NCBI GenBank assembly: GCA_026387175.1
Contig: JAPLME010000012.1
Span: 69,849 to 133,848 of the forward strand
Direction: 5' to 3'
Length of the DNA stretch: 64,000 nt
Source of the DNA: Candidatus Omnitrophota bacterium
GTDB taxonomy: Bacteria; Omnitrophota; Gorgyraeia; 2-01-FULL-45-10
Shown here: positions 8,416-61,100 of the stretch, piece by piece
Layout: each line of letters opens with the position of its first letter
How positions within the stretch are numbered: position 1 is the stretch's first letter
Notes under the pieces: generated by a model
Seen by the model: only the letters and a program-made list of their open reading frames with translations
Database searches by the model: none
What the model was told of the DNA's origin: nothing
Position numbers and translations under genes: made by a program

Positions 8416-8423
8416 GAGGACGT

Positions 8424-8558: not shown

Positions 8559-8562
8559 GGTA

Positions 8563-9930: not shown

Positions 9931-9995
9931 CCGCATTAAGCATAACCCATCGAAATTTATCTTGCATATTTTGAAAATTGGCAGTATTCTTGGGA

Positions 9996-10470: not shown

Positions 10471-11154
10471 TTGAATAAACGAAAGAGCGGATTTACAATG
10501 GTTGAGATTCAGATAGCGGCATTTATCGCTTCTATCATATTATTAGCCGCTGTTTCTTTGTACACGATGTATTGGCGGACTTTCGTAACGGACAGCGCTT
10601 ATCTGGACGTTTATTCAAGTTCAAGAATCGCGGTGGACCACATGGTAAGAGATATCAGGTGCGCGGCGCAAGTAGTGACGAACTATGGTTCTTATACGAC
10701 CACCGACAATACCATCGTTCTTCAGGTCCCTTCTATAGATAACTCGAACCCACCGATCACTATAAACTCTATAACCTCAGACACAAATCTTTATTACGAT
10801 TATATAATTTATACATTGATCTATAATAATAATCTGCAAAGCTACGATCTGTACAGAATTGTCCAAATAGACGGGAAGTTCACTACCGCCGGAGACTCGT
10901 ATTATCATAAAAACGGCAGGGTAAATGAAAATCGCGCCGTAGCCCACCATTGCGGCACTAATTCCGGAAACTTACTGACTTTCAGCTCCGGAAGCGTCGG
11001 TGGCACAACGTTATCACATGTTACATATCTGTCGGATGTCAATACCATAGGTATCTCTTTGCCGATTAATGAAAAAATGCTTTCTTTAAGCGGATCGGGA
11101 ACGAACACGGCGCAGATGATCCCGACAGCGGTAGTCAGGATGCGTAATAAATAA
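10471..11154 (+). CDS. prepilin-type N-terminal cleavage/methylation domain protein (pseudopilin/minor pilin)
   Basis: KRKSGFTMVEIQIAAFIASIILLAA. TTG start preceded by GAGGA. Confidence 0.7.
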   Translation: MNKRKSGFTMVEIQIAAFIASIILLAAVSLYTMYWRTFVTDSAYLDVYSSSRIAVDHMVRDIRCAAQVVTNYGSYTTTDNTIVLQVPSIDNSNPPITINSITSDTNLYYDYIIYTLIYNNNLQSYDLYRIVQIDGKFTTAGDSYYHKNGRVNENRAVAHHCGTNSGNLLTFSSGSVGGTTLSHVTYLSDVNTIGISLPINEKMLSLSGSGTNTAQMIPTAVVRMRNK

Positions 11155-35099: not shown

Positions 35100-35135
35100 A
35101 ATTTATCAGGACACAAAAAAAGGGGCGCTTCATAT

Positions 35136-36338: not shown

Positions 36339-36342
36339 TCTT

Positions 36343-36412
36343 TAAAATAGGGACAGCGCCCTATTTGTTTTCGAATAAGTCCGGAAAAATAGGGCGCTGT
36401 CCCTATTTTTCA
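36343..36412 (+). terminator. palindromic double hairpin with T-tract between MFP and RND genes (intra-operon attenuator/terminator candidate)
   Basis: aaaATAGGGacagcgCCCTATtt ... aaATAGGGcgctgtCCCTATTTTT. The two arms are exact reverse complements. Confidence 0.45.
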
Positions 36413-36426
36413 AGAGAAAATAACCA

Positions 36427-39400: not shown

Positions 39401-39615
39401 CGCTCCTGGGGTTACTGCCTATGGCTGTCAGCACCTCGGAAGGGTCTAACCTGTGGAGCCCGCTGGCCATAACAGTCGGAGGAGGCCTCACCAGCTCTAC
39501 GATCCTTACGCTTCTTATAGTACCCAGCGTATACATTGTGTCTGAAAATGCGGGCATCCGTATAAAAGAACTAACGGGGAAGATCCGCATATTCAAGCCA
39601 CGTGATAAGACATAA
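36427..39615 (+). CDS. RND efflux permease (AcrB/MdtB-like), subunit 1
   Basis: MSLPSFSINRPVTMLMIYTMLLLLGIVCMMQLPVELYP is a canonical AcrB N-terminus. 1062 aa, 12 TM. Confidence 0.9.
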   Translation: MSLPSFSINRPVTMLMIYTMLLLLGIVCMMQLPVELYPNISFGEISIIIEVRGGIPPTEVESMVTKLVEEGVGSVTHLEEMLSISKEGESTVVLSFTPGIAMEFAALEVREKFARVKNKLPKEIEKPIIAQFKRSDVPIVIISITSLKRTTEEIRKIVDENVREVIKRIPGVADAEVAGGRERKILIEADQRKMAAYNLSLDRIIAMIGANNLNLLSGDIERAKDKYLIRTIGLYRTVDDIKNIPVTALPDGTMVRLKDVASVLDSYLDPTGYARVNVRPVVSIYVQKESTANTIKVAQAIVAEVDRLRGILPKDLQLVITSNQADFIEKSIENLKVALLQGAGLIIIVLSYFMIKLSRKAMLLVTALLITILFIPTKFLYILLVVMVIAAIAIKKVRPVLIVSSAIPISIIITFIFMWMVKLSINFMTLFGLALGVGMLVDNAIVVFENIAHKHEKGISGIPAAIEGTEEVWVAILAGTLTHVSVFLPMIFVGQEIKLLYGGVAWTVTISLFISLFVAITVVPLLSSRTRFSIEDIPKGYGKANVVGFMKALYAAQRRGVIYVIRNIRNVYIIAFIAFLIALFGLGRLGMEFMGTTEQNKFTIFIELPTGAKLDATDSIVKKVEAIVKEIPEVKTFSARVEPWSSKVYVELVSLLRRKRSVAEVIESLRPKVEKFRPAFIYFEEEQEVGTKEVIVELFGYEYDTMREVAISMATRLGAVKGFTDTKIRMREGRPELGLRVDKKKAYIFDMTTTDIADAVHAQMRGLRATLFHTASSEVETIARLDEKYRKTFKDVHKLMFINKNDERIYLDQVADFKYGLGPSEIWRKNKTRMIQVSANIGKYPLSKAATLAKEAFGDLKLPDGYYYRIGGNYPTMMATQKQFKIIIWLIVVLIYLVLASLFESYHQPFIIMVSVPLALIGVTIALYVTGKSVGMGVLVGIMMLGGIVVNNAILLIDHANNLRRQKVNYLKAVIIASRDRLRPILMTTMTTLLGLLPMAVSTSEGSNLWSPLAITVGGGLTSSTILTLLIVPSVYIVSENAGIRIKELTGKIRIFKPRDKT

Positions 39616-39679
39616 AATCTGATCCACCGAGGGATTGGTCTTGACAAGCTTGACTACTTAAACTTATAATAAAAATTAT

Positions 39680-42600
39680 ATGAGTCTATCCCAATTTTCT
39701 ATAGAGAGACCTGTGACAATCATAATGATTGTCTCAGGAATTTTGATATTTGGCTGTATTTCGTTAGGATTATTGCCCCAGGAACTGTTCCCGCAGATAG
39801 TATATCCACAGCTCACAGTCGTTACCCCTTATGAGAACGCCGCGCCGGAAGAGATAGAGACCCTTATAACTAAGCCGATAGAAGAGGCGGTCGGTACCGT
39901 TGCCGGCGTAAAAAGAATACGCTCCATATCGAAGGAAGGTCTGTCTCTTGTCATAGCCGAATTCGGATGGAGCCAGAATATAAACTTCGCCGCTCTCGGG
40001 ATGAGGGAAAAGATAGATCTCGTGAAGGAGAGGCTGCCCAGAGAAGCGGAAGAACCTATCGTATTAGCCTATAACCCTTTCGACAAACCCATCCTGCTTT
40101 TGAGCGTGACCTCCAGTTCCGAGAGCCGTTCGCCCGTAAATTTAAGGCGCCTGGCGAAGAAGATGATAAAAGACGAGATCGAGAAAGTCGAAGGGGTCGC
40201 GTCGGCAACCATCTCCGGCGGGCTCGAGCGCGAGATCCTGGTCGACATTAACCAGGGCAGGCTTCAATCACGGCAGATACCTATCCTCGATGTGTCGAAA
40301 GCCGTAAGCAACGCAAACCTCAACTACCCTGCCGGCACTATCAAAGAAAGCTTTTATGAATATCTTATCAGGACGCTCGGTGAATTTGAAAAGGTCAGCG
40401 ATGTAGAGACCGTCCCTGTCGGCTCCGAAGAAGCGCGGGGACAGCAGCCCCAGCAGCAGGAAGATGAGCCGGGTAAGCCCTCAAAAAGAAATGTCAGCAA
40501 GGATAAGCGGCTCATTTACCTCCGGGACATAGCGACCATCACCGATGATGTCAAGGAGCGGACGAGTTATTCTAGGTACAATGGTAAAGAGAACATATCG
40601 ATAGCCATACAGAAACAGGCGCTCGGTAATACCGTCAGGATCATCGACAGGGTAAAAAAGAAACTCGAGGAGCTTAAAGGAGACCTGCCCAAGGATATCA
40701 GCTTCAAGGTTGTATATGATCAGTCCGGTTTTATAAAAGATTCCATCAACGGCGTATGGGACGCTGCCTGGCAGGGGGCCGTTCTCGTAATAATAGTTCT
40801 GTATTATTTTTTAAGAAACGCCAAGAGTTCCCTTATAGTCGCGTTTACTATCCCCATATCGATAATGGCAACATTTTCTTTAATGTTCCTCTCAGGCGTA
40901 TCGATAAATATGATGTCATTGAGCGGATTAGCTTTTGGCGTCGGCAGCCTTGTCGATGCCGCAATTGTCGTTATTGAAAATATATTCAGCCACATGCAGT
41001 CCGGTGAAGATCCGAAAAAAGCAGCTATTATCGGAGCAAACGAAGTCTCCACCGCGGTGGCAGGGGCTATATTAACCACAGTGGTGGTCTTCCTGCCGCT
41101 GATATTTGTCGTCGGAATTGTCGGCCAGATAACAAAAGATTTTGCCCTCACGGTGACATTCTCGCTTATGACTTCGTGGGTCGCCTCCATGACGATAATC
41201 CCTCTTCTCGCCTCAAGAGGCTTGAAGATATTGGATAAAGATCCGAAGACCGTCGCGATAGTGCGTCACTTCTACGAAAAGCAGACAGTAAAATATGTAA
41301 ACGCGCCGGGGAAATATATATTTCAGACATTTATTGTATTCCTGTTATCGCTCACACTTTTCATATTCATGGATAAAGAGCTGATGCCGAAGGTAGACCA
41401 GGGCCAGTTTACCGTAAAGATCGATATGCCGGCGGGAACCAGGTTAGAGGTTACCAATACGGTCTCCGAAAAGATAGAAAAATTCCTTTTAACAATACCG
41501 GAGGTGGAAGCTGTCAGCGCAACGGTGGGCTCCACGAAAGAATCCTCGACGAAAAGTATCGTAGACCGCTTAAACTATAATCAAGCTGAGATAGTCGTAT
41601 CTCTTAAGAAGAAAAGGAAGCTGAAGAGCTCCGATGTAGTTCAGATAGTAAAGAGCCACTTGGCCACCATGAAACTTGAAGGAGCGCGCATAGATTACGT
41701 ATTGCAGGAAAACGTCCTGGCGGCAGGCACGGCGGTACAAGCGCCTGTGACCATAGAAATAAAGGGAAATGACTTAAAGGTCCTGGAAAATTTAGCCCGT
41801 GAGGTGCAAAAGGCCTTAGGAAGTATCAAGGGGATATACGGCGTTAAAAATAACCTGTCAGAACCTTCCCCGGAAATCAAAGTCTATATAGATAAAGATA
41901 AGGCCTCTCTTTACGGCCTCTCGGTTACGGATATAGCGCAGACCTCCCTGATAGGGCTGAAAGGCTTTGTTTCCAGCAAGCTGAAAGATAAGGGAGAAGA
42001 ATATGATATTCGAGTGCGCCTGAGGAAACAGGATAGGGACAATTTCGATAAACTTGCAAGGATCGAGCTGCAAACACCGACAGGCGCTAAAATACAATTA
42101 TCGAGCGTGGCCAGTTTCACAAGGGGTAAAGGCCCCAGTGAAATAATAAGGATGGAGCAGGAGAGGGTGGTATTGGTCTATGCCAATATTTATGATAGGG
42201 CCTTAAAAGACGTTACCTCCGATGTAGACAATATATTAACCAAAATTCATGTCCCGAATAACTATACCTTCAAACTGGCGGGCGAATCGGAAGAGATGAA
42301 GACATCTTTCGATAGTTTAAGAAACGCCATAATTGCCGCGTTTCTACTGGTGTATATGATAATGGCGGCGCTATTCGAATCTTTATGGCAGCCTTTCGTC
42401 GTAATGTTCAGTATACCTCTGTCACTTATAGGAGTCGCATGGGGACTATTCATTACCCATACAAGCGTGAGCGCATATGTATTGATAGGCATTGGGATAC
42501 TTGGCGGAATAGACGTAGCCCACACGGTGGTCTTGATCGACTGTATTAATCTGTATATATCAAGAGGAATGAGTACCAAAGAAGCTGCTTTAGCCGCCAG

Positions 42601-42838
42601 TATCTCCAGAGTCAGGCCTATACTTATGACAGCGTTTTCGACGATACTGGGGCTTGTACCTATGGCATTTTTAGGCGGCGAAGGCGCGGAACTCCGCGCA
42701 CCTATGGCCATAACGGTTATGGCCGGCCTTACAGTCGCGACATTTCGCACACTTACGGTAATTCCGGCAATCTATTTAAGTGTTACAAACATAGGAAAAA
42801 AACTTTTTAAGAGAAAAATAACAGAGCCAAGCTTATAA
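39680..42838 (+). CDS. RND efflux permease, subunit 2 (tandem paralogue, MdtBC-like arrangement)
   Basis: MSLSQFSIERPVTIIMIVSGILIFGCISLGLLPQELFPQ. 1052 aa. Confidence 0.9.
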   Translation: MSLSQFSIERPVTIIMIVSGILIFGCISLGLLPQELFPQIVYPQLTVVTPYENAAPEEIETLITKPIEEAVGTVAGVKRIRSISKEGLSLVIAEFGWSQNINFAALGMREKIDLVKERLPREAEEPIVLAYNPFDKPILLLSVTSSSESRSPVNLRRLAKKMIKDEIEKVEGVASATISGGLEREILVDINQGRLQSRQIPILDVSKAVSNANLNYPAGTIKESFYEYLIRTLGEFEKVSDVETVPVGSEEARGQQPQQQEDEPGKPSKRNVSKDKRLIYLRDIATITDDVKERTSYSRYNGKENISIAIQKQALGNTVRIIDRVKKKLEELKGDLPKDISFKVVYDQSGFIKDSINGVWDAAWQGAVLVIIVLYYFLRNAKSSLIVAFTIPISIMATFSLMFLSGVSINMMSLSGLAFGVGSLVDAAIVVIENIFSHMQSGEDPKKAAIIGANEVSTAVAGAILTTVVVFLPLIFVVGIVGQITKDFALTVTFSLMTSWVASMTIIPLLASRGLKILDKDPKTVAIVRHFYEKQTVKYVNAPGKYIFQTFIVFLLSLTLFIFMDKELMPKVDQGQFTVKIDMPAGTRLEVTNTVSEKIEKFLLTIPEVEAVSATVGSTKESSTKSIVDRLNYNQAEIVVSLKKKRKLKSSDVVQIVKSHLATMKLEGARIDYVLQENVLAAGTAVQAPVTIEIKGNDLKVLENLAREVQKALGSIKGIYGVKNNLSEPSPEIKVYIDKDKASLYGLSVTDIAQTSLIGLKGFVSSKLKDKGEEYDIRVRLRKQDRDNFDKLARIELQTPTGAKIQLSSVASFTRGKGPSEIIRMEQERVVLVYANIYDRALKDVTSDVDNILTKIHVPNNYTFKLAGESEEMKTSFDSLRNAIIAAFLLVYMIMAALFESLWQPFVVMFSIPLSLIGVAWGLFITHTSVSAYVLIGIGILGGIDVAHTVVLIDCINLYISRGMSTKEAALAASISRVRPILMTAFSTILGLVPMAFLGGEGAELRAPMAITVMAGLTVATFRTLTVIPAIYLSVTNIGKKLFKRKITEPSL

Positions 42839-43188: not shown

Positions 43189-46100
43189 ATGGATATCCGA
43201 AACGACGAAAAGACTATTGATTCGGCCAGAGAAGAACTTGGCTCGAAATCTTTGATAATGGACTTACAAAGTCCTCGGCATAAGATATGGATGCGTGCTA
43301 TAGCGGTAATTCTCGTCGTCACATTTATAAATCAGGATATCATATGGGCGCAGGATGGAGCTCCTGTCTGGTCCAAAGGACAGAATGGGAGCTTTTCTTT
43401 TAAGCCGCCCGTCAATGTAAACAGTCCGATCAATGTCCCCAAGGATGTCGCCGTCACTAAGGAAGTCTATACCGCTCCCGGCGATAAGACTATCATAAAC
43501 ATCCAGGATGCCCACTCATCTCTCGGCGCCCAGGAGTCGATAGCTTCAGTGCTCGACTCATTAGTGACTAATTATGACCTAAAGCTTATAGCTATAGAAG
43601 GCTCTTCAGGTTACATAGATACGTCCATCCTCAGGGCTTTTTCAAACGAAAATGTCAGAAAAGGAACCGCAAGCTACTTGGTTAAAGAAGGCAGGATGTC
43701 AGCGGGCGAATTCTTCACTGTCACATCGAATAAGCCGGTGGCCCTCTACGGAATCGAAGACAAGCCCCTATACCAGGAAAACCTTGAACAATTCAGAGCT
43801 GTTTACCAGGCAAACAGTGAAATCAGGAAAGACATTGAAAACCTGCTCTCATCGCTTAAAACCCTCCAAGATAAGATCTATTCCCAGGAGTTGAAAGACC
43901 TTACCACCAATTCGGTTCTGCACAAGGACGGCAAGCTTACATTCACCGAGAGGTGGAGCCTGGTGAAGGCCCTTGCTGATAGGACCGGCTCTGACTACAA
44001 GAGATACGAGAACTTGACCAAGCTTGTCGAGTCTCTGAAACTGGAGAAAGATATCAGTTTCGAGAAGGCTAATAAGGAGAGAGACTCTCTTATAGACGCG
44101 CTTAGCAAAAAGGCCTCCAAGCAGGACCTGGAACAGATAGTCCTGAAATCGCTTTCATACAAGACCGGCAAGATTTCACATGGTGAGTATTATGTCTTCC
44201 TGCAGGAACAGGCCGAGAAGGCCGGCATTGACGCGGAGCCTTATAAGAACCTGATATCATACACAAATTACATTACGCTCTATGAATCGATAGATCTCAC
44301 CGCCATCTTCGAAGAGGTGAGGGATTTTGAAGACCAGATAAAAGAAAAACTCTTCACCGGAGAAGACCAGAAGAAGCTTTACGAGATAACGAAGTGCATG
44401 GAATATTTGAGAGATATCTTTGACCTGAAGCTGACTAACGGTGACTTTGAATATCTGGCCAAGAATATCGAGCACTGCAACGCTGGCTTTGTGGCATCCT
44501 TCATAAGGGACGCCTCGATAAAATACGGCGTTACGATCGACACGGATTACGATCTCGGTAAGATATTCGGCGCTCTCCCCCAAGCGATGGATTTCTACAG
44601 GACGGCCGAGAAGAGAAATCATACGATACTCGCCAACACAATTGCCACAATGAAAGAGCGTAATCAGAACGTAGCGGCTCTTATAACAGGCGGTTACCAC
44701 TCGCAGGGCATAACGGAACTATTAAGACAGAACCGCACATCCTATATTGTAATACTCCCGAAGTTCGACGCCTCGAAGGGCGAGAGGCCATATGTGGCGA
44801 TCCTTACGAATAAATCAGCTCCGTACGAGAAACTCCTCAAGAGCGGACAATACTTCATCGCCACGAGCGCGTATCTGGCCGGAATAAGCAAACTCAATGA
44901 GGATGTCAATAATCTGCCGGCGGGCAAAGATTCAAAGGAGTTGATTAATAGCTCGGAATTTAAGGAGCTGCGGGCTAGGCTCGCTGATAGTTTGATCGCG
45001 TCCTTATTACAGTCAGTTACTGGCGCCGCAGGTGTAGATGCGGCTGTCCTGGCGTTTAAGAAGAGACAGCAAGTTAATTTATTAGGCGCCGGCAGGGAAA
45101 TGAAAGCCGCGGTCGAGCAATATCTGAGAGACTATACAATGCTTCTAGAGCGAGAAGGAGCAGGATTTCGTGATGCAAATGTTAAGCCGCTCTCTCCTGA
45201 AGTATTGCAAGAGCTGGTTCGCGAAGTTATATTGGATTATGCGGGTTTTGATATTTCCGCAGAGGAGCCGACGGAAGCTAAGGGCCTAGCCACCGAAAAA
45301 GTTATTCCGCTGGTTGAAGAGCGGATAAAAGGACTAACCAAGAGAATAGAAGTGCTCGAAGATCAGGACAAGCAGGCGAAGATCGATAAGATAATAGACA
45401 TTGTGAAGTCCGCGGCCAATCTTGAATCGAGCGACTGGAAAGAGAAGGTTGCCACTGCGGTTGCCACCGAGTTACGGCGCAAGGGTTTGGGCACAGAAGA
45501 GCAGGATAATATTACAAACCGGATTATAACGGATCTCGAGCAGCAGGCCGTTGCGGCGGCGAAACCGGTTGTAGTTGCCGTGCCTGCAGCTCAGACTCCT
45601 GCAGTTCCGATGGTTTTAAGTCAAGCGCCGACAGCTGTTGAGCCGGCCGCATTGCCTGCGCCAACTATGCTTGATCAGGGCGGAAAAGATCTTGCAGGGA
45701 AGCTTGCTGAGGCAATCGGTAAGCAGTTAGATATTATAGAAGAAAATATGAATGGTATACCATGGGGAGAGAAAAACTTAAGCGCTGATACCATGAAAAA
45801 GCTGCAACAGATGAAAGAAGCTGGACTCGGAATAACTAAGATTATAGACCAAACAGCTAAAAACATAGACTTATCTCCTCACCAAAGGGCGTTAATCGAT
45901 ACTATATCGCGTGGTGGGGAAATTAAGTTTTATGATTTAAAGAACGGCATTGCGCCTTTAGTTTCATATCTAGACATGATTATAAAAGATGAAAATGCGC
46001 ACGAATTGCTAACAAAAATTTTGGAAAGATGTAAACAAACTGTTTCTTATCTAAAGAGGGCTTCGTTTGAGAATGAGCCAATGGCAGTTTTAACTATTAG

Positions 46101-49100
46101 AATTTCCGGAGAAGAGCTTAACTTCGTACAGTTACGTGATTGGAAAAAAGAGCCGCCAGAAACTCCGGAAGAATGGAAGGGTAAGTTAGCTCAGGATGGA
46201 TTAAACGCGCGAGAGATAGATGCAAAGTTAAAAGAGCTTGCCGATAAAACAGTTATTGCACCAACCCCTCCTATAAAGCCCACTCCAACGGTTAGCGAAT
46301 CAGCCGCACAGCGGGTTATATTAGATTTCTCAAGCAAAAATGCTAAGTTGGCCTTTGACGCGCTTATTGAGACCTTGAAAACCGAAACCGTCGATACTGA
46401 AAAAGCTATTATAGATAGCATGATTCCAAAGAATAGCACCCCCGACCAGCCGACCACGGTCTTGCATTTAGCCGGAGCAGAACAAAGAGGTTTTAACGAC
46501 TTTTTACGGAATGAAGTAGAGGTGAAGAGAAATGCAAAGCTTATAGGGCTTGACTTAAATTATTCACTAGCTGATGAGGAAAAGAAGTTATTTATAGGAG
46601 ACATTACAGGAGATAACTCTCGCAAAATAGCCGATGGATCGGTTAACACTATAATATCCGTAAATTTCTTTAATGCGGAGTGCTATAAGTTATATGAAAA
46701 AGCCCGCGAAACACCACTCTCCGAAACGGACTATTATATTAATATCGCGGCGGAAATTTACAGAATGTTAAGAAACGGCGGAAAGCTTTATATTGCCGGT
46801 TCTAGTGTGACCAGTGAGTTTGAAAAAGCATTCAAAGCAGAATCCTTCAAGATGATGCCGCTGGACGATACCATGCCTGGATTTTATGAAATAATCAAGA
46901 TCGCGAAAGCCGGCCCGGAGACACCCGGCGGACCTAGCGAACGCGTCGGGTCCGTGGCAGGAGAAACTCCTGTCGCACCGCCGGCAGTGCAAGCGGCTCA
47001 AAGAATTTTAGTCGAAGTTTGTGGAAAAGCAGGCTATCCATTCGTCAATATTTTATTAACATTTATCCTTACACTATTTATACTTGTCTCAAGCTCAGTT
47101 TACTCAATAGCCGCTCCGGCGCGAACTGTTCCGGGAGGTCCACAGATAAAACTGGCACAAGCAGTAAAAATGCCTACGGCGGTACGAACTAAGGCCCCGG
47201 TAAAAGCGCAACCTGCGCCGGTACAGGCTGTTAAGCCGCCGTCTTTGGTGGCCGAAAAGCAGTTCGCGCTTGACCAGAAAAAGCTCCGGGATGCGATCGA
47301 TACTTATTTCGCAAAAATGGCTTCTTCGCAGTATTTCATGTATAGAGCTCCACGCCTCAACTCCGAAAGCAAGATGATAGAAAACCCTCTCCTTATAGAT
47401 GCATTCGTCAATAACCGGGGAAAGTTAGCTCTAAAAGATTTTCGTGGTGTTCCCGGCCTGGAAAATATGCCTGAAACCAGGATAGATAACATCAACCGCA
47501 TCATCGATGAAATATGGAGGAGCGTTGACAAGACGGCCCTGCCGGAATATATAAAAGGTAAGCTGGTGCTGGACAGGAAAACAGGACGATTATCGCCGGT
47601 AGAGGAGCTTCAGAAGACGCTGTTTGCGCTCTCTGTTCTTGCTCCCGATACGTATGAGTATCTGAAAAATGATAATGCGCCTATTGTTTTGGTTGATACC
47701 GATTGGTTTTCCGGCGCCACTAAAGGCGATACTTTTTTCGGCATGATAGCGCGCAATCCTCGCGGAGTGAAAATAGAGCTAAGCAGCCGGAATAACACCG
47801 TTAAAAGAGTCGGGACGGCCGTTCATGAGGCCATTCATCGTAAGAGAGGCGATGTTGCCACAGGTTATTTTAGCCTCTATCTTAAAACGTTGGGCCGCAT
47901 CCGGGAGCTTTTTGTCAGCCTCCCTTCGTTCGAAAAAGAGCCAATTAAGAAACAGCAGGATTTTTATAAGAAAGAATTGCTCATAAATGTGTCGGCAGAG
48001 GTTTTAAACAATGCCTATTTAAGCCAGCGCTGGTGGCTGGGCCTGATCGGTGTCATGGCCTGGGTATTGACGATTATTACGCCTGCCGTATTGATTGCGA
48101 AACTCATTGTCTCTTTGGTCTCGAGCAAAAAAGAAGGTGCTGGGAGACGTCCCGGGCCCACCACATTTATGCTGGCATTCATTTTACCGCTCATCGCGAC
48201 CGGTCTCGCGGGACTGCCCGTGATAGGCCAGCAAGTGAACAATTTTGCCGGTATGCTCTTTTCGCCGATACCATTGCCGGAGATCGCTCCCGGAGAAAAG
48301 GTCGCCGCTAAGAAGAAAGCAGGTTCGGATGTCCAGACAATAGTTGACAGGACTATCGGGAAATTTTACGCCGGCATAAACGCGCCTCCCGTGGTGCTCG
48401 ATAATAACCTCTTTGACCGTTTCTGCGCGTTCGATCCGGAAGACGGCACCATTCATATAAGTCCCAGAGCGTATGATCCTAAAACCGGAAGGGTAATAGA
48501 AGAGGTAAGACTCTTCCACCTGCCGCATGAAGCATTCCACTATGCTTTGCAGATGACACCCATTAATAAGAATGAGAAAGCGCATGAGATCGCAGCCACA
48601 TATCTCGCCCTCCTTAATATAATCACCAATCGCAGCAGCTTGACAAAATTGATAAATGCTGCAAATCCCGTAGATGGGCGTGAGGTCTCTGCCGGCATGA
48701 AGGGGATAGTTAAGTATTTTGAAAGCTTCGGATTCGATGTAAAGAATATAAATAATTACCGCGCCCTCTTATCCGCTTTAAACGTCGATGGATTAAGAGG
48801 GATCGCTTCATACCTTGCCTCGACCAACCCTGATTTTAGAAATATTTCCGATAGAGATATGGCTTCGGCTGTAAGGCTCATTAGCTCTAAGCCTCAGGAT
48901 GGGATATTCAAACCCTTAAAGAAATTAGATGCCCTCGGGATTAATAAAAAAGGTTATCTTGCAAACCCATACCTGTATGCCGATAAGCTGGTGCGGTTCG
49001 AAGATGCCGGAGTTAAGCTGAGCGCCAAGAATTTAAGTCTACTCTCATTAGGTAGAGATAATATAAAGCCGTATGTAGAAATAGCGTTAGCTAGTGGTAT

Positions 49101-52100
49101 CAACCCCAATGACATGACTCTCGCCATATTGAGAGCGCAAAAGGCTGAGGTGGCGGTGCCTGCCGCTGCGCCGGCTATATTATTAGAGGAAGCCAAGGCT
49201 CCGGCACCGGTTGAGCCGGCTGAATTACAGTTGCCCGCCGCAATACCGCCAGTTGTGGAGATTATCCCCGGTGAAACTGACATTCAGAAAAAAGCTCTTC
49301 AGGTGTTCGGAGAAGTTCGCGGGATACCTGCGGAGAAATTGAGTTATAGGAAGGGACAGATAGAAGCGGTCGAGGCGATGAAAGAAGGGAAATTCGCTGA
49401 ACTGCGAACAGGCGGTGGTAAGACGCTTACCGAGGGCGTGACTGCGCTCGAAGTGCTCAATGATCCTATTCGGCAAACGGTATGGCCGGGTGAAAAAGTC
49501 CTGATAATGACTCACGAAGACAATCTTACCGAACAGGCAATGGTGAAGGATAAGATGGGCGCTATATTGAGCAAGTGCGGCGCTGTGACAGGGTTTATTC
49601 TTCCGAAAGTTATGGCTAATGGAAGCGTTGCCGAGATCGGCGTAATATTCGAGAATGGGGTGGAAGTTGAGAGTGAGGCCGCTATCGACAAGGTTTTCGA
49701 GCGCTGCGATATCATATATGGTAAGTGGGACAGGTTCGTCCATCGTAATATGAAGGAGAGGCTTGGGACCGATACTCTCGAGATGAATACGAACAAGTAT
49801 TTTACACTCTTTGATGAGGCGGATCTGATGCTCGTATTTGGTTCCGCGACGCCGTGCATTATATCAGGCAAAGATATGGACGATGCTGAGAAGCGCCTTG
49901 CTGTACGCAAGGGGATAAACAGTATAGTTAAAGAGATGGTATTAAAAAATCAAAAACGCTATTTATATATTCCGCAAGGGACAAGAGAAGCATATTTGAC
50001 TGACAGCGGAGAGCAGGCAATCGAGAAGAAGATCCGGGAATTATATAAAGACAATGAATATAAAGAGCTTCTAGATATAGCGGTTAAAAACTGGAAGATC
50101 TTTGCCATGGACGCGTTACAGGCGAACCTTTTCTATAAAGTTGACGAACAGTACTTCCTTAGAACGGATGAGAAGGGAAAAGTCATTGGTGTTGATGTTT
50201 GCGACACGGACACTAAAGCCAGAAAGACCGGCATGTCTTTTGGCGAAGGTCTTCAGCAAGCCATAGAAATTTCCGCAGGTGTAGCGGACGCGAATTTAAC
50301 TCCCGAAACGTATACTTCGATGTCGATGGCTATAGGCAATTTCCTCTCGAGAGATATTATCACAGATTACGCGGGCGCCAGCGGCACAATGGAAAAAGAG
50401 CGTTTTGAGAATATGTATATGGATAAACACGGCAAAATCAAAACCGTGCTCAAGATAGAAGGTGAATCACAGACGCTGGATAAGAGTGCCGGCCACACGG
50501 GATTTAATACAAGGGAAGAGAAGTGGGCGGCCCTGATAGATAGATTGCCTGCAAAGATGTCCCTTGGACAGCCAATCCTAATAAAGATTGAATCGGATGC
50601 CGAGATGGCAGAGCTAAAGAAGTATATAGAGGCTAATATGGCTTCTATGCTGGCTGAGCGAGGAACGATAATAAATCTGGCCAGCGGCAGGAATGCTGCA
50701 GAGTTTACTGAAAATATAGCCAAAGCCGGATATGGAAATGTTATAACGATAGTTACCAATATAGCGCATCGCGGTATCGATATAGAGATAAAGGGCCGTT
50801 TCCTTAATAATGACGGAACCGAAGGCGCCAAAGTGCCGCCGATAGATAAAGATGCCCCCGGGTTGCACGTAATATCGACTTATTTGGATGAACCTGAGGC
50901 ATTCGAGATCCAAACTCAGGGCCGCGCGGATAGAGGCGCCAATAAAGGTTCGTGGGAAGGGCTATTCTCGTTAGATGAAAAAATATTTACTGAGCATGTC
51001 ACTCTATTGGACCAGCAGATAGCCGCGCTGCGTAATGCGGTGGGGAAAGGTGATAAGACCGCTATCGACGGGCTTATGGCAGCGGATGGGCGCACAGTAA
51101 GACTGGGTTTAATAGCTGAGATCAGAGACAGGATAGTGAGTGAGCAGAGCCGCAATGATGAGAAACGCCGCGAATATGAGAACGAGGTATTCGCATATCA
51201 GGAAAAGATCCTGGGTCTTCTTAATATAACAACATCGCGTGACGAATTTATAAAATTCCTTAAGGCGATAGGCGCCTATGATGGTATAGTGAATAATCTC
51301 AAAGAGGGTGAGACGATCGATGAGAAGATAGCCGTTCTGGCACAGTTGACTGTTTCCGTGCTGACCGATGAGATGAGTAAATTCCAGACGGAACAGCAGG
51401 TTATCCGGAAACGGCTTGACTATCTGGCCCGGGAAGCAAGGCTGGGATTGAGGCCCGCTCTTATACAGTTCAATAAGGAGATAGCGAACCTGGCGTTACT
51501 TGCCAGGACTTTTGACGCCAGGATAAAAGATGCCAAAGCATTCGTGTCCGCCATTATTGCCCAGGACATGGGAGATAAAGTCGAGAATGTGGCGGAGACC
51601 GGGAAACGGAGCTTGCGCGATCTTATCTCCACCAACTTTATCAAAACATTCGCATCCATAATTATGATCGTAGGAGCAGGTTTCCTGACGGCTAAATACG
51701 GCTTCTCTTCGCTGGCTGATAGCATACTGCAGCCCTTAGTCACGCTGTTGACGGCGCATCCTCTCCTAGCCGGTATTGCCGCGGCGATGATGCTCATCTC
51801 GGCTGTATATTTAAAACAGCTTTACGGTAAGAAGATAGGCGTGCTCGATACATCTAATACGGAGTTCCTGAGATTCACAGTCGGCGTAGGCAGAGGGAAC
51901 TTCTTCAAGGCTTTTGGCCGATGGACAGGCATAATGGCCTTACAGATCCTTGCAGGTCCCGGACTATTTGTTGGCGCCGGCACGCTGATAGCCGCGATAG
52001 CACATCCTATACTTGCGGTGGGATCAGTAGCGCTTCCGCTTGCGCTGGTCACAGTAACACTTGCGCTCGCGGCCAATATAACCCTTATCGCGATATTTAA

Positions 52101-55100
52101 GTCGAAACTCGAAACAGTCAGAGATATCACGCCTACGCGCTTCCAATCAGGGTTCAATACATTCGTGAGGGCGCTGGCCATTTCTATAGGCGTCGTCTTT
52201 GCATTGCAGATGGCCGGCGGTATTCTCGCCACCACTCTCATCTCGCTTGGTTTTATAGTCGTGACTGCGGTGGTTGCCGGCTTGGTGGCCAGAAGTATCG
52301 AGAATAGATCTTACAGAGCGAAACTGCCGGTATTTATAGGCGGAGCCTACGGTATTATCGCGGCAGTGGGTCTTATAGTCTTGTCCGCAATATTCGGAAC
52401 GCCCGCTGTATTCTCCTCGGCCCTTATCATGCCGCTCATATCCATTCCGGTCGCGGTTATCGGGATAGCGATGATGATATTGCAGGTGGTCCAGGCGCGC
52501 AAGGTGGCCTTGGAAGCTGAACGCGCCGGCCAGAGTTACTGGAGAACTTTAGCGGAATCGTTCGTGCCAAATTCGCGCAATATATTGATGTACGCTATGT
52601 CGCTACCGGCCGTGTTTATACTATTCAGCGGAGCTGTTCCAGCGCTGATATTTGTGGGCGCGGTAGGGTTTGGAACTCTCCTTATTAATAAATACAGCGT
52701 GAACATCGAGAAGATGACCGGCCGTAAGATGTCGGAAACTATTTCAGGAATGGCAGGACAGGCTATAATGTTATCGGCAGGCGCCGCTCCGATGGTGGCC
52801 TACCCGCAGGCCGCGTATTCTGCGCAGGTGGAGAGCTTAAAGGCCGGTCTGAAGCAGGGCGCGATGGACCGAGCTGCCATAGCCGCCGCTGAAACTATAG
52901 GCAAATATTCTCCGAAGCAGTTCTCCGGATTCGAAAGATTGAGCAATAATATTAGCAGTGTTTTTGATGATATCATGAATGGGAAAGCGGTTGTGGCGCC
53001 TGAAACACTTCAAATTACCGCACCCGCGGCTCCGCAAGTTACTGAAAAAGCTATTGAAGAGCAAGTGAAGCCGAAGGAGAAGCCTCAGGTCGGCGAAACC
53101 CCCGGTGGCGGCACTGCAGGACAGGGCCCTGCAGCAGGGCCCGGCGCGGGTGGAATTCCTCCGCCACCGCCTGTTATTCCCGAAGTGCAACCTGCTCCTG
53201 AGCAGATTTCGCCTGTGCCTACGCCTGTAAGGATGGAAAAACCGGATCTTGCGAGTGTCTTGAAGGATGCCCGGGAAAGTAACCTCGCTGTCGCGAAACT
53301 CGTATCCCCGCTCGCAAATTTTATAAATCAGGGTAATGTTATAAGCAATGTTGGTGGCCCCACCGATAACCCAAACATCCTGATAATCCGAAATATTCTT
53401 AAAGCTCTGGATTATAATCTAGACGGAGAGGCTGTCGCAGCGCTCCAGGAAAAGCATAACCTCGCGAAACAAGATGGAAAGATCGGCCGCGAAACTATGG
53501 CTGCGCTAATAGGAGAGCTATTAGCGCTGGATAACAGCGCGGATGTCGCTAAAACGATAAGCAAGAACACCGCTATGGAAATAGCGTCCCTTCGGGAAAA
53601 AGCGGCAGAGGTCGAAAAGAAGCAATTTGCCGGCGCGGCAGGGGTTAATCAAGCTGGAGCTAATCCAAAACTTCTTGATAATATGGCAGCGCTCCAAGAG
53701 GAGATATACGCTAAGTATGGCTGGCGGTTCTACAAGCTTAGCGTAGTGCGGACGAAAGAAAGAGAAGCCATGGTCGTTAAGAAACACTATAAGGATCTTA
53801 AGTATAAGGATAGCGAGAAGATAGCGGAGCTCGCCGATTATATCATTGATCCCGCAAATTCTCTGCTTCCCGCTGATGAGGCGAATCAACTTAAGGCGAG
53901 ATATCCTGATGTTGAGCGGCTTATTAACAACAGCCCGCATGTTAGAGGGATCGCCATGGATATCTATTTAATAGATGAAAATGGGATAGTTCGCGATTCA
54001 CATGTTTCCGCTAATCGTTATATGTATGATATAGTCGGCAAGCTTGCGGCGGAAAAATACGGCATGATATATGGCGGCAATTTCAAAGGCCTATTCAAAG
54101 ACGACACTATGCATTTCCAGCTTGATCCTCGTAATCTAGCAATTGAACTGGCCAAAGAGGAAGCTGCCGCGGCCAAAGAGCCAAAGAAGGTTACGAAGAA
54201 GGCAATGGAAAGAAAGCCTCGCGCCGGGCTTGACGAAGCATTCAAGAGAATAGAGAATTGGGCAGGAAAGGTGGCAGCCACCGTTAAGTCTGCAGCCGAT
54301 AAATTAACATTAACGCCTATGGGATTTCCGATCTGGGGAACTTCGGCCGCATGCAGTCCGTCGAACGGGGAATATTTAATTGCCGGAGGCCCGCTTGGCA
54401 GTATAGGTAAAGCTGACAAGTGCTATGTTTTTGGTAGAGAAGGAATTATAGCCCCTCATGCGAGTTTCCTCGCCCTTGACGTAGCGCCTGCTGAAGCGAT
54501 GTGGAATATAGACGAAATGATAAAATTATATCCTCAGGTGCTCGGTAAATACGGAATGTATGATTCCGTAAATGCGAAGAACGAACAATCCTCCAGACAG
54601 TATGTAGCGGTCAACCAGGCCATGAGTTTCATAGCTATGGTCAATTGCCTAAAAGGTGGAGTTATACAAGACCGTTTTGCCTCAAATGCAGCTATCAAAA
54701 AGTCAATCAGCTTATTGAACGAGACGTTCGACAAGATAGAGACTCCTGCCGGCCTATCACTCGATAGAAACATTTCTTCGGAAGACAGGAATAGGCTTCT
54801 GAGTATAGCTCAAAAGACCTGGGACTACTTTAAAGATAACGTTAATGAGAGCACAAACTGGCTGCCGCCAAACATGATAGATTCGCGAGGAGCCGCCGTT
54901 AAGCATACTTCCATAACCGACATAGGGCTCTACCTTACAAGCATTGTCGGAGCAAAAGAATTAGGGCTTATCGATGAGGCTGAGGCCAGGACCAGGATCA
55001 TCAACACTATAAATACTCTCAAGAAATTGGACAAGTGGAACGGGCTATACCGGAACTATTATCATACGGATGACTTGAAGTCCGTGACAAAGGGAGACAG

Positions 55101-58100
55101 GCACATCTCTACCGTTGACAATGGATGGCTCGCCGCAGGCCTTATAATTGCCGGTGAGACATTCCCTGGATTACAGGCAGAGACGGCAAACATCGTCATG
55201 AACATGAAGTTCGATAAGTTGTATGATGCTAAAGAGCAAAAGTTCGCCAATGGATATGACGAAGATACAGGGCTGACAAAGTCGCACTATGGACTTATCT
55301 ATACCGAGATACGCCCGGCGTTACTGATAGCGATAGCAAAAGGCGATATACCTAAAGAAGCCTGGCTGAAGACATCTAAGACATTACCCGAAGCGTGGGA
55401 TTGGCAGGCCCAGAAACCGAAAGAAGGCTATTACGAACACCGGGTTAAGACGGGCGTAGGAGTTGAGACGGCCCATTTCATCCCTTCATGGAACGGCACT
55501 ATGTTCGAGGGTCTGATGCCGAACATGATTTTAAATAATAGAACGCTTTCACCGAACGGCTACGCGAAACAGGACGCGATGTATGTATTCCTGCAGAAGT
55601 ATTTCGCTACGGGATTCCGCGAGGTAGCGCCGCCGGTTACTGAAACGCCAACACCAGTTACCCAGCCACAGGTGGCACCAGCGCCAGCTGCTCCGGAAAA
55701 GGGAGAGATACCGCAGTTCGCGGATCTTGCGAATGCTTTAAAATATGCCCGGGAAAATAATCCTGCCGTCGCAATCCTTATATCGAGACCATCTAACTTC
55801 ATAAATCAGGGTAATGTTATAAAGAGGACCAAGAGCCCTGGTATTGATCCAAACACTAAAGTGATTCAGGGCGCTTTGATCTCGCTCGGCTATGATCTAC
55901 CGAAGTATAAAGATGACGGAATATACTGGACGGAGACGGAAGCCGCGGTTAGAAAATTCCAGGAAGATCACAGACTAGCAAAGCGTGATGGAAAAGTCGG
56001 CCGCGAGACGATGACTTCCTTAATAAGAGAGCTGCTATTACGCGAGAGTAAGGCAAGACCTACTCCAATTGAGACGGCCGTTACTCCGGTTGCTCCATCT
56101 GCTAAGCCGATCGTTATCGCAGCTCCCAAGCCTGCTGTTACCGCGGTCCCTTCACCCGCCAAGCCGGCCGTGACCGTTCCGCAGGCTAAGCCAACTGTTA
56201 CTGCAGTTCCCCGGCCCGCTGAACCGGCTGTGGCTATCGCACCGGCTAAGCCAGCTGTCTCCGTGGTTCCTTCATCCGCCAAGCCGGCCGTTACCGCGGC
56301 GCCTAAGCTCGCTAAACCGCAAGTCAGCCCGGCTCCGGAAACCGCTGTAGCCGCAACTCCGGCGGAGTTAAAAGCCGCGCGGCAAGCACTCTTCAGAAAG
56401 AAGGGAGAGTATGGCGCTGAACTATCGAAAGCAACCAGAAAGCTTGACGAACTAAAAGAGGTTAAGGTAAGAGCCTCTGCGCAGATTAGCGGTAATCTTA
56501 AAGAGCTTGACAGGGAAACAATTCCTGCCGGGGCATTGGTCCCGACCGGTCCGCAGCGTAGGGTATCGTTCAGGGATGCTTCTGAAAATAGCACTGCATC
56601 AGCTGATGCCGAGATGAAGAGGCTCAGGATAACAAGGCAGGAACTTCTCGCGAAGCGCACATCGCGGTTATATTGGCCGGAAGTCATCGGTTTTGCGGGC
56701 ATTGGTTTCCCGGGGGCCGCATTTGTAGGAGTGACTGTAAGTCATTGGCTGAAATACCCTGGACGAGAGACTATAGTAGAGAGCGCCGAAATGAAAACTG
56801 AGCGGGCGAAGCAGGAAGAAGCCTTGTTCAAGAGGCAGCTTCTCTTCGGATTGACCAGGGCGTTCGGCCTTTGCCAGATAGCGGAAAAGGAGCTTGACGC
56901 CGCCCAGGTCTCATATAAAACAAGCTTAGAAGCGCTAAAGACGGCGCTTGCGCAGTTTGAAAAAGGGGAACTTACGAAGGGCGAGCTGGAGAATTTAAAA
57001 GCGAAACAGAACGAAGCGAACGTCAGGTATCTGAAAGCGCAGCAGGCATCGAGAAACGCGAGAGAGCTGGTAAAGTCATTAGCAGGCTATGACGTTAGAG
57101 AAGGAGTGGAGATAGATACTTCAGTTTCGCCGGATAAAGAATTTGCCAGGGAACTGGAAAAATTGGAAGACAGGAACAGGCAACCCCGTATATTACTTAA
57201 AGTCTTGGGTATTAAGGACCAGACATTGAATACCCTTTTCGCTATGGAGCAGCGTAATACAGCAGTAAAGTTAAATGCCCGCGCGACGCTCAATTTAGGC
57301 GCTGTAACGAGCGCCAATTTCGGAGTCGGATTTGAGATCACTCTCGGTAAAGATGTAGATCTCCAGCTCCGCCAATTAGAGGAGAGGCTGGCGGAAGGCA
57401 AATATATTCAGGAATTGAGAAACATGTACTTGGAAAGTGCCGAACTGATGCATGGTTTGAAACTGTATAACGACACATTAGCGCGGCTCGTAAAGATAGC
57501 TAAGAACGCGAGAGAAAAGGCGGAAGAAGATAAAGTAAAAGCTAAAAATAATATTATTTCACAGGATGATTATCTAAAGAAAGAATTGGAAGCGATAAGA
57601 GCCGAGGTGCTGGTAAAACAATTCAAGGCTTTGATAAAAAATGTTCGCAGCATGCTGGCGGAACTGGGCATCGAATCAAATGACATACCCCGCAATCTCT
57701 CGGAGGAGAATATGCTCGTCGCCGCTAAAGAGTTGATGCGGCGCAGAGCCAACGAATCGATATTATATCTAAAGGCATTAAAGACTCCCGAGAGCACACT
57801 TCGGAAGATAGACGAAAACGTCAATAACCTTTTAGCGGATAGATCGTTCTATCGCGAGGCCACGAACAGATGGGTAGTAGAGGAAGCGGAGATCTTCGAA
57901 AAGATACAGAAGAGAATAGTTTCGGAAGAGATTATGAAGAACAAGTCTTTAAAAGAACGCGTTCAGACATTGAGCGCCGGCTATACATATACAAGAGAAC
58001 AAGCTGTTGCGCAGCAGACTCTTTCCACAGGACAGGCGCCTATCGGAGGAGGAGGCGGCGCGCCGATAATTCAGCCGTGGCCGTCAACAGCCGTTTCTTC

Positions 58101-61100
58101 TACAGGAGCCGCTCCTTCTGCAGGAAGCAACCCTTCCACAGGAGCCGCTCCTTCGGAGCCGAGCGCTGCCACTACGTCCGGCACGCTTTCAATGGGCGCC
58201 GTTATACGAGTAGCCGATCCCGCATTCAAAGCGAGAATTGCTTACAGAGGCAGCCTCCAAGAAATGTTCAATGCGTATGTAAGGGCGGCAAAGAGCGATC
58301 AGATGATAGAGGCTGAGAGGGCTCAGATCGATGAAGAATTGCTAAAATTCGAACTGCGGGAAGCCAAGAAAAGGCTGGATCTGGCGGTAAGATTAAGAGA
58401 GCTTCGCGATCGCCAGGATAAGGATCAGAAAGTAAGGATAGATGCCGCCGGAAAAGATTTCGACGTTCATAATAACGAACTTCAGGCGAAGAACGATGTT
58501 GCCGATCTTGAACGAAGGCTCAAAGAAATACAATTTAAATATTCCGTGAGAAAGAGTTCGCTTAAATACGGCGTGGATCTTACCGCGGAAGTCGATAAGC
58601 TCATAAAGACATTGGAGTCGATAGATCGGGTGGTCGATATAGCCGATAAGGGAGAGCCATATGATCTTTCTATAACTGGAGAAAATAATATAAAGAATAA
58701 GAGCTGGTGGATAGGCTTGCAGTTGCCTTTCCCCATATGGTTTACAAGCAGGTGGGCCGCTAAAAAGATCAATGTCAAACAAGTGAAAAAAGACCAGCAG
58801 TTGGAGCAGGAGAAAGCAGCGAGTGTAATAATAGGGTGGATAAATGATGATCTGAAAACCGATAATGATCTTACAACCGCCAAGGCGAATGTTAAAGGGG
58901 CGGAGGAGATGATAGCGAAGATCACCAAAGAATTAGACAGGTTAAAAGGAAAAGGCTCGCGAGAAGATATCGTTCTTCGTATAGAGATGGACCTTGCCAG
59001 ATCCAGGATGGCGCTGGAAAATGCAAAAGGAGTTTTAAAGAAAGCAGGGCTCGTAAAAGAACGATCGAAGAAGATCCTTACGGCACTGGACAACTCTCTC
59101 AGAAGAACAGACGATGTTTTGATGGAGTCGCCTTCTGTGACTAAGCTAAAAGATTTTGCGAGAGAGGCATTGAGCCAAAAACGCAGAGGCGACAAGATCT
59201 CGATCACATGGGAAAAGTTTAAAGAGCTGGCGGAAAAGAATGCTGTCCCGGTCAAAATCGCTACCACCGAAAAAGAGAAGAGCGAACTGGAGCTGACGAA
59301 GAAAAAATTGACGGCCCGTCTACCGTACCTCTTCCTTGGAGCCCCTTATGCGCCGGGCGCCGGAAACGACACTTTCCGCTATGGCCTTACGGCTTATACC
59401 GACCCTTCAAGATGGTTTGAGCTCACCAACCCCGCCATTAAAGAGGCCAGGCTCGAAGATATGATAAAACAATTGGATAGCGAAAAGGAAAAGCTTAACA
59501 CGAGATTAGATATAGACGGCGCATACGGAGCCTACAGAGTCGCGCTTGTGAAAGCGGAATCCCTGAAATCTATACTTAAGAAGATGAGAGAGCAAAGATC
59601 GCGCATGGAAGCGCATACCAGGATATATCCAGAATCCGGCGGCGAAGCAGTCAATAGATATGATGTCCTTATCGCGGATACGGAAAAGACGCTGAGAGAT
59701 ACGACGGCTCAGATCAATGATCTCAAGATAAAGATGATGAATATGCTGCAGAGCGTAGGCGATATAGATTTTAAGGATGAGTCCGGCAGATCCGTAGGAT
59801 TGGAGAAGGTAGATTTTGATGCTATCTGGCCCAAAATAGAGGCCGGCCACCCCGATATAAAAGCGCTCAAACTTAGAATAGATAAAGAAGAAGTCTCCGC
59901 AAGGGCCGTATTGCGCGACAATTGGTGGACGGAGCTTTCAATTTCGCTCGTAAACAGCGAAAAATTAACGCCAGGGCTGAATTTAGTTTTAAATGTCAGG
60001 TTGAACCCGAGCTATTGGGAAAATAACGCGGAAAAGATCAGGGTAAAGGAAGTAAAGGAAGAGCTTAGAAAGAACCTTTTTGAATTAAGGCGTAAGATAG
60101 ATGACTCTATATCGAGACGCGCCAATCTTATTGCATCGATAAAGTTGGCAGAAGGTGTTTACAAAGAGAGAGCGCGTATGGTGGTGGAGGAAAGAAAGAA
60201 CTACCTCAACACCACTATTCCCACGGACAAATTACGCGAGAGAGAATACGATCTTCTGGAGGCCCAGAAGGAATACTTTGCGCAGCTTGCGGAACTCCGT
60301 ACAATAGACGCGCAGTTAAAAGATATTGTGGAAAAAGTAGGCGGCAGGATAGAAGAGACCGGCGTGGAAGAGGTTAGGAAAGATATAGTGCGTACTGAGG
60401 AACTCAGCAATGATTTTGCGGATCTCGGCGCGCAGATAGCTATGGCGGAACAGGCCAGACGAGTGGCTTCAAGGGGGATCAAATGGGTCGATAAAGCTTT
60501 AAATAGATTATCGAAAGGCATTACGCCGGAAGACGATCTGGCCGCAGCTCTCGTAAAGACGATGGAGAAGAGTGCTTCGATCGAAGTCAACGCAGCCAAT
60601 TTAAAAGAAGCCGGATATATATCCAGGGAGAAAATGGCCGAGATAGCCGTGCTTATGGGAATGCCGAAGACCCGGGCCCAGGAGCTTGAACGCGTTCAGG
60701 ATCTTCTCAGAGTAGTCTTTGATAGATATAGAAAAGCGCATAACATGACAAAAGATGAAATGTCGGCATATATAGGCAACTTCATATATTTCGCCCGGAC
60801 CATCCTGCCCAAAGTCAAGACAATCGAAACGTTACCCGAATTTGTCGGCACCCAATTCGCGTTCGTGGATAGAGATGAAACCTTAAGTTACAAAAAGCTC
60901 GGGCTGGTAAGCTACTACGCAAGGCGGGCGACCCTTCTTCTGTCGCCGGGATACAGTTGCGAAGGGAAAGGCCAGGGCGCGGCCAGAGATACGCTAGTGA
61001 AGAAAGAGGCCCCTGAAGATATCAAATTCTTAAATATGTATGACAGGATGGCCAAAGGCGGGACCTTAACCGCCGCCGATTACGAGCAATATATAAAATG

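Follow-up and report, generated by a model that had tools for sequence, protein, structure and literature searches.

A diverged SecA-type motor joined to a family-restricted membrane block inside a giant Omnitrophota protein

The window described here is a stretch of 64,000 nucleotides from a Candidatus Omnitrophota bacterium (assembly GCA_026387175.1, contig JAPLME010000012.1, positions 69,849 to 133,848). About a third of it is taken up by one giant open reading frame (ORF) on the plus strand, in which a segment related to the translocation ATPase SecA is followed by a block of hydrophobic helices. No stop interrupts frame 0 between 43165 and the end of the window at 64000, a stretch of 20.8 kb, and the earliest ATG is at 43189. 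The encoded protein has at least 6,937 residues, since the 3' end of the ORF is outside the window. There are no in-frame stops between the SecA-like motor and the remainder of the ORF, so the motor is not a separately translated secA. The first-pass annotation of this DNA had proposed that the SecA-like segment is embedded in a giant protein, and the uninterrupted frame bears this out.

The motor occupies residues 2063-2613 of the giant ORF. It is a diverged form of the first nucleotide-binding domain of SecA (NBD1) with the preprotein cross-linking domain (PPXD) inserted in it, followed by the second nucleotide-binding domain (NBD2). SecA signature motifs had been listed for this segment in their native order, and each of the peptide strings quoted in support was found exactly once and at the place given for it. 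For example, the Walker A string AELRTGGGKTLT is at residues 2078-2089 (nt 49396-49431); the positions of the other motifs are collected in Table 1. Profile searches agree with the motifs. The Pfam family SecA_DEAD (PF07517) matches with an E-value of 6e-14 (52.4 bits against a cut-off of 24.6 bits), P-loop_SecA (PF21090, corresponding to NBD2) with 2.6e-11 (44 bits against 27), and SecA_PP_bind (PF01043, corresponding to the PPXD) with 1e-6 (29.7 bits against 23.5). The last of these matches covers residues 2252-2368 and is inside the NBD1 match. A phmmer search of the PDB returned SecA and SecA2 chains exclusively, the top match being E. coli SecA (E = 1.6e-20). When a profile of 18 members of the family was aligned to a canonical SecA profile with hhalign, the probability was 100% and the E-value 1.3e-50. 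This alignment pairs residues 25-574 of the module (motor, linker and membrane block) with residues 86-600 of SecA and is continuous through the PPXD; its end at 574 corresponds to residue 2613 of the ORF. An AlphaFold2 (AF2) model of residues 2040-3235, with a predicted local distance difference test score (pLDDT) of 64.6 and a predicted template modelling score (pTM) of 0.59, was used for a Foldseek search, and ranks 1-33 were all SecA structures. The highest target-normalised TM-score, 0.55, was to the SecA of the SecA-SecY complex 5eul. Judged by these comparisons, the similarity of the segment to SecA is far beyond chance.

The catalytic residues have been retained. In 17-18 of the 18 relatives the Walker A Lys, the Walker B D-E-x-D, the SGT of motif III and the Gln of the Q-motif are invariant or nearly so, as is the PPXD signature GxxFGEGLQQAxE, with G2362 and Q2365 invariant. 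The arginine finger R2536 (motif V) and the motif VI arginines R2587 and R2590 are found in all 18, and the GGGKT of Walker A and the DEAD of Walker B are invariant across the family. With these positions held constant, both the ATPase and the polypeptide clamp are very probably functional.

The motor had also been called "complete", and this overstates the case. Neither the SecA scaffold/wing (PF07516, SecA_SW) nor the C-terminal zinc-binding tail (PF02810) gave a Pfam match in the segment, even at E ≤ 10, and the hhalign comparison leaves the first ~85 residues of canonical SecA unmatched. Of the three SecA families proposed as markers for the segment, SecA_DEAD and SecA_PP_bind thus exceed their gathering scores and SecA_SW has no match. 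The same absence is seen in the closest relatives: PF07516 is found in none of the eight close Omnitrophota proteins (P0001-P0008), but in all SecA-family proteins from the same search (P0009-P0075). The distance from ordinary SecA is also clear from the NCBIfam equivalogs. NF009538 scores 123.8 bits against a cut-off of 814, so that the claim that this is not the housekeeping SecA holds, and TIGR00963 scores 108.7 against 800. The SecA2 equivalogs are all below their cut-offs as well (TIGR03714, 79.6 against 930; TIGR04221, 70.5 against 725; NF012136, 75.5 against 1100).

About 210 residues separate the end of the motor from the hydrophobic block. In canonical SecA the scaffold/wing bears the two-helix finger and provides the contacts to SecY. 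In the AF2 model the linker contains long helices at module positions 610-650 and 679-720 (pLDDT 64-86). Foldseek alignments extend over 800-880 columns to full-length SecA as against 601 to the C-terminally truncated SecA-N68, a difference that is merely suggestive. Alignment of the linker profile to the canonical SecA C-domain by hhalign was insignificant (E = 0.26-0.38). On the strength of the modelled helices and the long structural alignments, the linker may be a much-diverged scaffold-like remnant. A likeness noticed by eye between …LDYLAREARLGLRPALIQFNKE… of the linker and …MDYLRQGIHLRGYAQKDP… of canonical SecA was confirmed by no test and is not claimed.

Beyond the linker there is a polytopic membrane block of about 355 residues, on the presence of which the hydropathy of the window protein and that of the family average agree. 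The family average resolves it into five hydrophobic stretches, 36-63 residues long, each read as a helical hairpin. A hydrophobic domain with 8-10 helices, some 200 residues past the motor, had been described from the letters alone, and it is confirmed here with ~10 helices and a distance of ~210 residues. The AF2 model of residues 2810-3235 has a pLDDT of 72.2 and a pTM of 0.69. The loops between hairpins are conserved, and at the family level each carries 3-5 Lys or Arg residues. The conserved positions of the block are for the most part in loops or, within the helices, at small residues (Gly or Ala). This points to tight packing and to an interaction surface on the cytoplasmic side, not to a polar pore. 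By the positive-inside rule, loops rich in Lys and Arg face the cytoplasm, and so these loops, and therefore the motor, would be on the cytoplasmic side, with the hairpins barely protruding into the periplasm. After the fifth hairpin there is a further conserved loop and then a weakly hydrophobic segment, SAG..PMV.YPQ, which is a candidate final crossing of the membrane, leading into the periplasmic part of the protein.

The fold of the membrane block matches nothing in particular. The SecY fold has 10 transmembrane helices in two pseudo-symmetric halves, with a plug and a lateral gate. An internal duplication was looked for among the five hairpins and none was found. Profile searches of Pfam and the PDB gave no match, and the best Foldseek match (E = 0.01, TM-score 0.18) was of a generic kind resembling the major facilitator superfamily. 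Nothing in these searches links the block, by sequence or by fold, to YidC, TatC or a solved channel of any kind, and by the same searches it does not belong with SecY/Sec61.

Table 1. Features of the giant ORF and of the operon upstream of it (window coordinates; residue numbers are those of the giant ORF)
Feature	Position (nt)	Strand	Basis and remarks
TolC-like OEP	33096-35099	+	efflux-type operon
HlyD-family adaptor	35136-36338	+	efflux-type operon
Two tandem AcrB-family pumps	36427-39615 and 39680-42838	+	efflux-type operon
Giant ORF	43189-64000	+	frame 0, stop-free from 43165; first ATG 43189; relatives are giant ORFs of Omnitrophota metagenome-assembled genomes, 2.2k to >7.7k residues
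Conserved N-terminal domain	43222-44880	+	residues 20-572 (~550); signal-peptide-like hydrophobic segment at residues 44-62
NBD1 (SecA-type DEAD motor domain)	49351-50439	+	Gln2065 of the Q-motif; GGGKT nt 49411-49425; DEAD nt 49813-49824; SGT within YAGASGTM, nt 50368-50391; PPXD inserted
PPXD, inserted in NBD1	49918-50268	+	SecA_PP_bind above cut-off; conserved GMSFGEGLQQAIE motif
NBD2 (SecA-type)	50503-51003	+	TNIAHRGIDI (nt 50755-50784) with R2536; motif VI GRADR with R2587 and R2590, in QTQGRADRG... (nt 50911-50979); P-loop_SecA 2.6e-11
Helical linker	51004-51627	+	residues 2614-2821; two ~41-residue helices in AF2
Polytopic membrane block, family-specific	51628-52689	+	residues 2822-3175; five hydrophobic hairpins (~10 helices); hydropathy and AF2
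Conserved Lys/Arg-rich loop and weakly hydrophobic segment SAG..PMV.YPQ (residues 3204-3215)	52690-52815	+	conservation in 18 relatives; hydropathy
Downstream periplasm/outer-membrane-type region	53389-59028	+	Pfam matches 5e-17 to 5e-10, all above gathering scores
PG_binding_1, two copies	about 53389-53523 and 55849-56022	+	Pfam
Peptidase_M15_4	53929-54123	+	Pfam
Glycoamylase (glucoamylase-like)	54322-54687	+	Pfam
DUF3131	54805-55227	+	Pfam
TolC-like OEP (PF02321) segments	56617-57075 and 58690-59028	+	Pfam

In giant envelope proteins of Omnitrophota, motor, linker and membrane block are conserved together as one module. The nearest proteins to the module, without exception partial "hypothetical proteins", come from Candidatus Omnitrophota metagenome-assembled genomes (MAGs). 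A scan for the locus, with one genome per species, gave 16 loci, of which 15 are in MAGs that bear the label Omnitrophota or, in the case of five 'binchicken'-type bins, 'uncultured Planctomycetia'. In at least 11 giant ORFs of Omnitrophota the three parts match collinearly over a single stretch (split in two in L008), covering query residues ~20-1190 with 36-69% identity. These ORFs have 2,280 to more than 7,700 residues, most of them being ended by a contig edge, and the position of the module in them varies from residue 246 to residue 3209. An exhaustive HMMER search of 1.84 billion representative proteins with the linker and membrane block gave only 19 matches, all of them members of the same family, either long proteins or fragments cut off by contig ends; this confines the membrane block to the module. 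Wherever the N-terminal side is intact, these relatives have the motor upstream. With ~1,200 residues the module is compact and conserved and could be cloned for testing.

A second conserved region, the N-terminal domain, makes up the core of the family together with the module. It is found in 10 of the 12 module-bearing ORFs with 27-74% identity, and its 62 relatives are nearly all from Omnitrophota. The spacing between it and the module varies from about 350 to 2,600 residues. Its invariant motifs are IQDAH..AQ, EG..G and ITGGYH. Searches of Pfam and the PDB gave no credible relative for this domain, only weak matches to DUF5694 and DUF5682. The D-A-H … E-G … G-G-Y-H motifs may be those of a Tiki/TraB/ChaN-like domain. 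In the relative L015 (MAG nW3bin14) the N-terminal domain is an ORF of its own, with 905 residues (6528-9245), directly upstream of the ORF for motor and membrane block (9047 onward) and overlapping it in another frame, which reflects a genuine split of the gene or else a frameshift error. No Pfam domain was recognised in the regions upstream of the module. Two HExxH motifs, HEAIH (47824-47838) and HEAFH (48526-48540), flank a two-helix hydrophobic hairpin at 48031-48231 (residues 1623-1689) upstream of the motor; they have no Pfam match and, with the hairpin, may be a metalloprotease-like element.

The part of the chain that follows the module has a different character. Going by their Pfam families, the recognisable domains C-terminal to the module are of periplasm or outer-membrane type, and similar ones occur in relatives: Glycoamylase, DUF3131, PG_binding and OEP in L010, OEP in L004, LTD and OEP in L007, and MdoG in L006. 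The OEP segments suggest that part of the giant chain reaches the outer membrane. Between the second PG_binding_1 copy and the first OEP segment of the window protein there is a low-complexity linker rich in Pro, Ala and Val, with repeated (P/S)AKP(A/T)VT units (about 56062-56364, residues ~4300-4400).

How cells a few hundred nanometres across make proteins of thousands to more than 100,000 residues and export them is an open question to which this locus is relevant. We give a probability of about 50% to the following reading: the segment is a membrane-tethered SecA-derived motor that acts in cis and exports the downstream part of its own giant protein, most simply through the SecYEG of the cell. 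The motor and linker would be translated first and would fold in the cytoplasm. The hairpin block would then insert in the inner membrane and keep the motor there, probably next to the cell's own SecYEG. Using ATP and the PPXD clamp, the tethered motor would drive the downstream part of its own chain, thousands of residues long, across the inner membrane. The cargo carried in cis would include the peptidoglycan-binding, M15 peptidase, glycoside-hydrolase-like and TolC-like domains. The membrane block would be an anchor or docking element, not a channel, and the motor would be a dedicated SecA working in cis. The bases for such export in cis are the homology to SecA, the intact catalytic residues, the collinear module, the family-restricted membrane block and the type of the downstream domains; from these we infer the topology, the action in cis and the use of SecYEG. 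A translocation motor built into its own substrate would be one solution to the export of very large proteins, and it would depart from the textbook picture of a soluble SecA acting in trans.

Several points weigh against export in cis through SecYEG. Docking on SecY in the canonical manner is unproven, because the scaffold/wing that provides the SecY contacts is undetectable by sequence. Whether the number of membrane crossings is odd or even is ambiguous; block 5 (residues 3140-3175) may contribute 0, 1 or 2 of them, and so may the weak segment at residues 3195-3217. The confidence of the whole-module model is moderate (pLDDT 64.6). Lastly, a simple anchor would not require a membrane block so large, restricted to the family and strictly co-conserved.

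In an alternative reading, the block of ~10 helices would itself be a protein-conducting channel, through which the fused motor drives polypeptide independently of SecYEG. This was the view of the first-pass annotation, which described a self-contained translocation module. It is favoured by the inseparability of motor and membrane block in evolution, by the occurrence of the block nowhere else, by a number of helices (about 10) like that of SecY, and by an undetectable SecA scaffold/wing, which fits a partner other than SecY. However, the block resembles no SecY, YidC, TatC or other solved fold, and its conserved residues are in Lys/Arg-rich, presumably cytoplasmic loops rather than in the helices. 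A self-contained translocon is therefore unsupported, and we consider it unlikely. What stands of the earlier interpretation is a SecA-derived ATPase, embedded in the giant protein and collinear with a membrane block; a complete motor is an overstatement, and a self-contained translocation module is unsupported.

Action in trans is another possibility that the downstream domains bring up, and one that is distinctly unlikely. The giant protein would then be a secretion machine that spans the envelope in a single polypeptide, with the SecA-like motor in the cytoplasm, the block in the inner membrane, peptidoglycan-binding parts in the periplasm and TolC-like segments in the outer membrane, and it would export other proteins, e.g., lytic enzymes for predation. 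Like L010, L004 and L007, the window protein has TolC-like OEP segments after the module; it also has PG_binding_1 and M15 domains, and an operon for a TolC-like protein, a HlyD-type adaptor and two AcrB-type pumps is directly upstream. Yet the OEP matches are partial and modest (E = 1e-9 to 1e-5), no candidate substrates were identified, and the layout is fully compatible with these domains being simply exported cargo.

It is very unlikely that the motor serves something other than export, whether as a membrane-tethered unfoldase, an extraction or quality-control ATPase, or a regulatory or nucleic-acid helicase module, with a target other than the nascent giant chain. SecA is a member of the superfamily 2 helicase-like ATPases, and in keeping with this there are weak DEAD and ResIII matches, and MDA5 and RIG-I follow SecA in the Foldseek ranking; the channel-contacting domains of canonical SecA are also undetectable. 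Against these stand the SecA-specific polypeptide clamp, the PPXD, which is kept and conserved, and the membrane tether with its subsequent periplasm-type domains, for which export is the best fit. An identity as a DEAD-box RNA helicase was rejected, since PF00270 reaches only 21.1 bits, under its 26-bit cut-off.

A long shot, to be given little weight, is that the giant protein is a complete one-chain machine that spans the envelope, with the SecA-derived motor in the cytoplasm, a new type of conducting domain in the inner membrane, peptidoglycan-binding and lytic parts in the periplasm and TolC-like segments in the outer membrane, and that it exports itself or prey-directed effectors without SecYEG. 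An artefact, in which an ordinary secA was joined to its neighbours by misassembly or a lost stop codon, has nothing in its favour but the two overlapping frames of L015, which show that frame breaks occur in the family, and it is effectively refuted by the identical collinear layout in at least 11 independent assemblies, along with the 20.8 kb open in a single frame and a motor far from housekeeping SecA (~26% identity, 124 bits against the 814-bit cut-off).

Among known systems, canonical SecA (E. coli or B. subtilis; TIGR00963 / NF009538) shares with the motor the order of NBD1 with inserted PPXD followed by NBD2, all of the ATPase motifs and the PPXD signature. Unlike the segment described here, it is a soluble, free-standing protein of ~800-1000 residues; the segment is internal, fused to a membrane domain and only ~26% identical. 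Canonical SecA also has a region designated HSD/HWD (PF07516) and the C-terminal zinc-binding tail (PF02810), neither of which is detectable here. The accessory SecA2 proteins (the SecA2/SecY2 type of Gram-positives and mycobacterial SecA2) are second, diverged SecA paralogues dedicated to particular, often very large substrates, as this motor would be, and C. difficile SecA2 ranks second in the Foldseek search. SecA2 proteins are free-standing, keep the scaffold and act in trans, and in the SecA2/SecY2 type they pair with a recognisable SecY2. In contrast, the motor here is fused to its presumed substrate, its membrane partner is not SecY-like, and it scores only 70-108 bits where the cut-offs are 725-1100.

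The closest comparison is with SecA-like domains already reported from Omnitrophota. In a preprint (West-Roberts et al. 2023, bioRxiv 10.1101/2023.11.21.568195), most giant proteins of the phylum are described as having divergent, overlapping SecA_DEAD and PPXD domains without scaffold/wing, and the SecA domains of giant proteins form their own long-branched clade. Normal secA, secYEG, secB and secD coexist with giant genes in complete Omnitrophota genomes, and it was proposed that adjacent transmembrane regions anchor the SecA-like domain, whose role would be export of the giant protein itself (bioRxiv 10.1101/2023.11.21.568195). An Omnitrophota host, SecA_DEAD with PPXD and no scaffold/wing, a giant ORF and adjoining transmembrane regions are all found in the present case. 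The role in cis export given above matches this independent published proposal and is supported by it. A 2026 preprint describes a 20-protein PF07517 architecture cluster among long proteins of Omnitrophota. The focus of these sources is on much larger proteins of the 'Archaeovorin' and 'Dockerin' types, with up to 85,804 residues (2023) or at least 10,000 residues (2026), whereas here there are at least 6,937 residues, the end being outside the window.

The locus is a further example of an arrangement first reported in the 2023 preprint, with no new mechanism shown; the idea is not new because West-Roberts et al. (2023) had reported and interpreted such domains. What is added here are the boundaries of the module, its fixed collinearity and its catalytic invariance; a membrane block that is restricted to the family and has neither a known nor a SecY-like fold; and a conserved N-terminal partner domain, with recurrent TolC-like and peptidoglycan-binding domains downstream. 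Neither a fixed module of motor, linker and family-restricted membrane domain nor the conserved ~550-residue N-terminal domain is described in the examined portions of the 2023 and 2026 preprints, and a term search of the 2023 preprint for TolC, efflux, peptidoglycan binding and M15 came back empty.

The window contains other genes and repeats. The operon of the resistance-nodulation-division efflux type listed in Table 1 (33096-42838) is on the same strand as the giant gene and ends ~350 bp upstream of it. Farther upstream, a DUF7305 protein (11157-12431) comes after two pseudopilin-like ORFs (9978-10457 and 10471-11154), both with N-terminal methylation motifs. West-Roberts et al. (2023) reported genes of the type II secretion or pilus-like kind in the neighbourhood of Omnitrophota giant genes (bioRxiv 10.1101/2023.11.21.568195), which the present ORFs fit. 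The PADLOC defence models gave no match. A ParA/MinD-like ATPase (26928-27761) precedes an 867-residue protein (28276-30879) that consists almost wholly of tetratricopeptide repeats (TPR_12, 5e-145). Toward the end of the giant ORF, at about 61650-62360 (residues ~6163-6400), the translation contains at least four tandem repeats of ~60-70 residues each; they have no Pfam match and are of the form G.(K/R)(I/M)AI(A/V).D(L/I)… (F/W)..FF(D/N)..G.(I/V)…V(K).LF.

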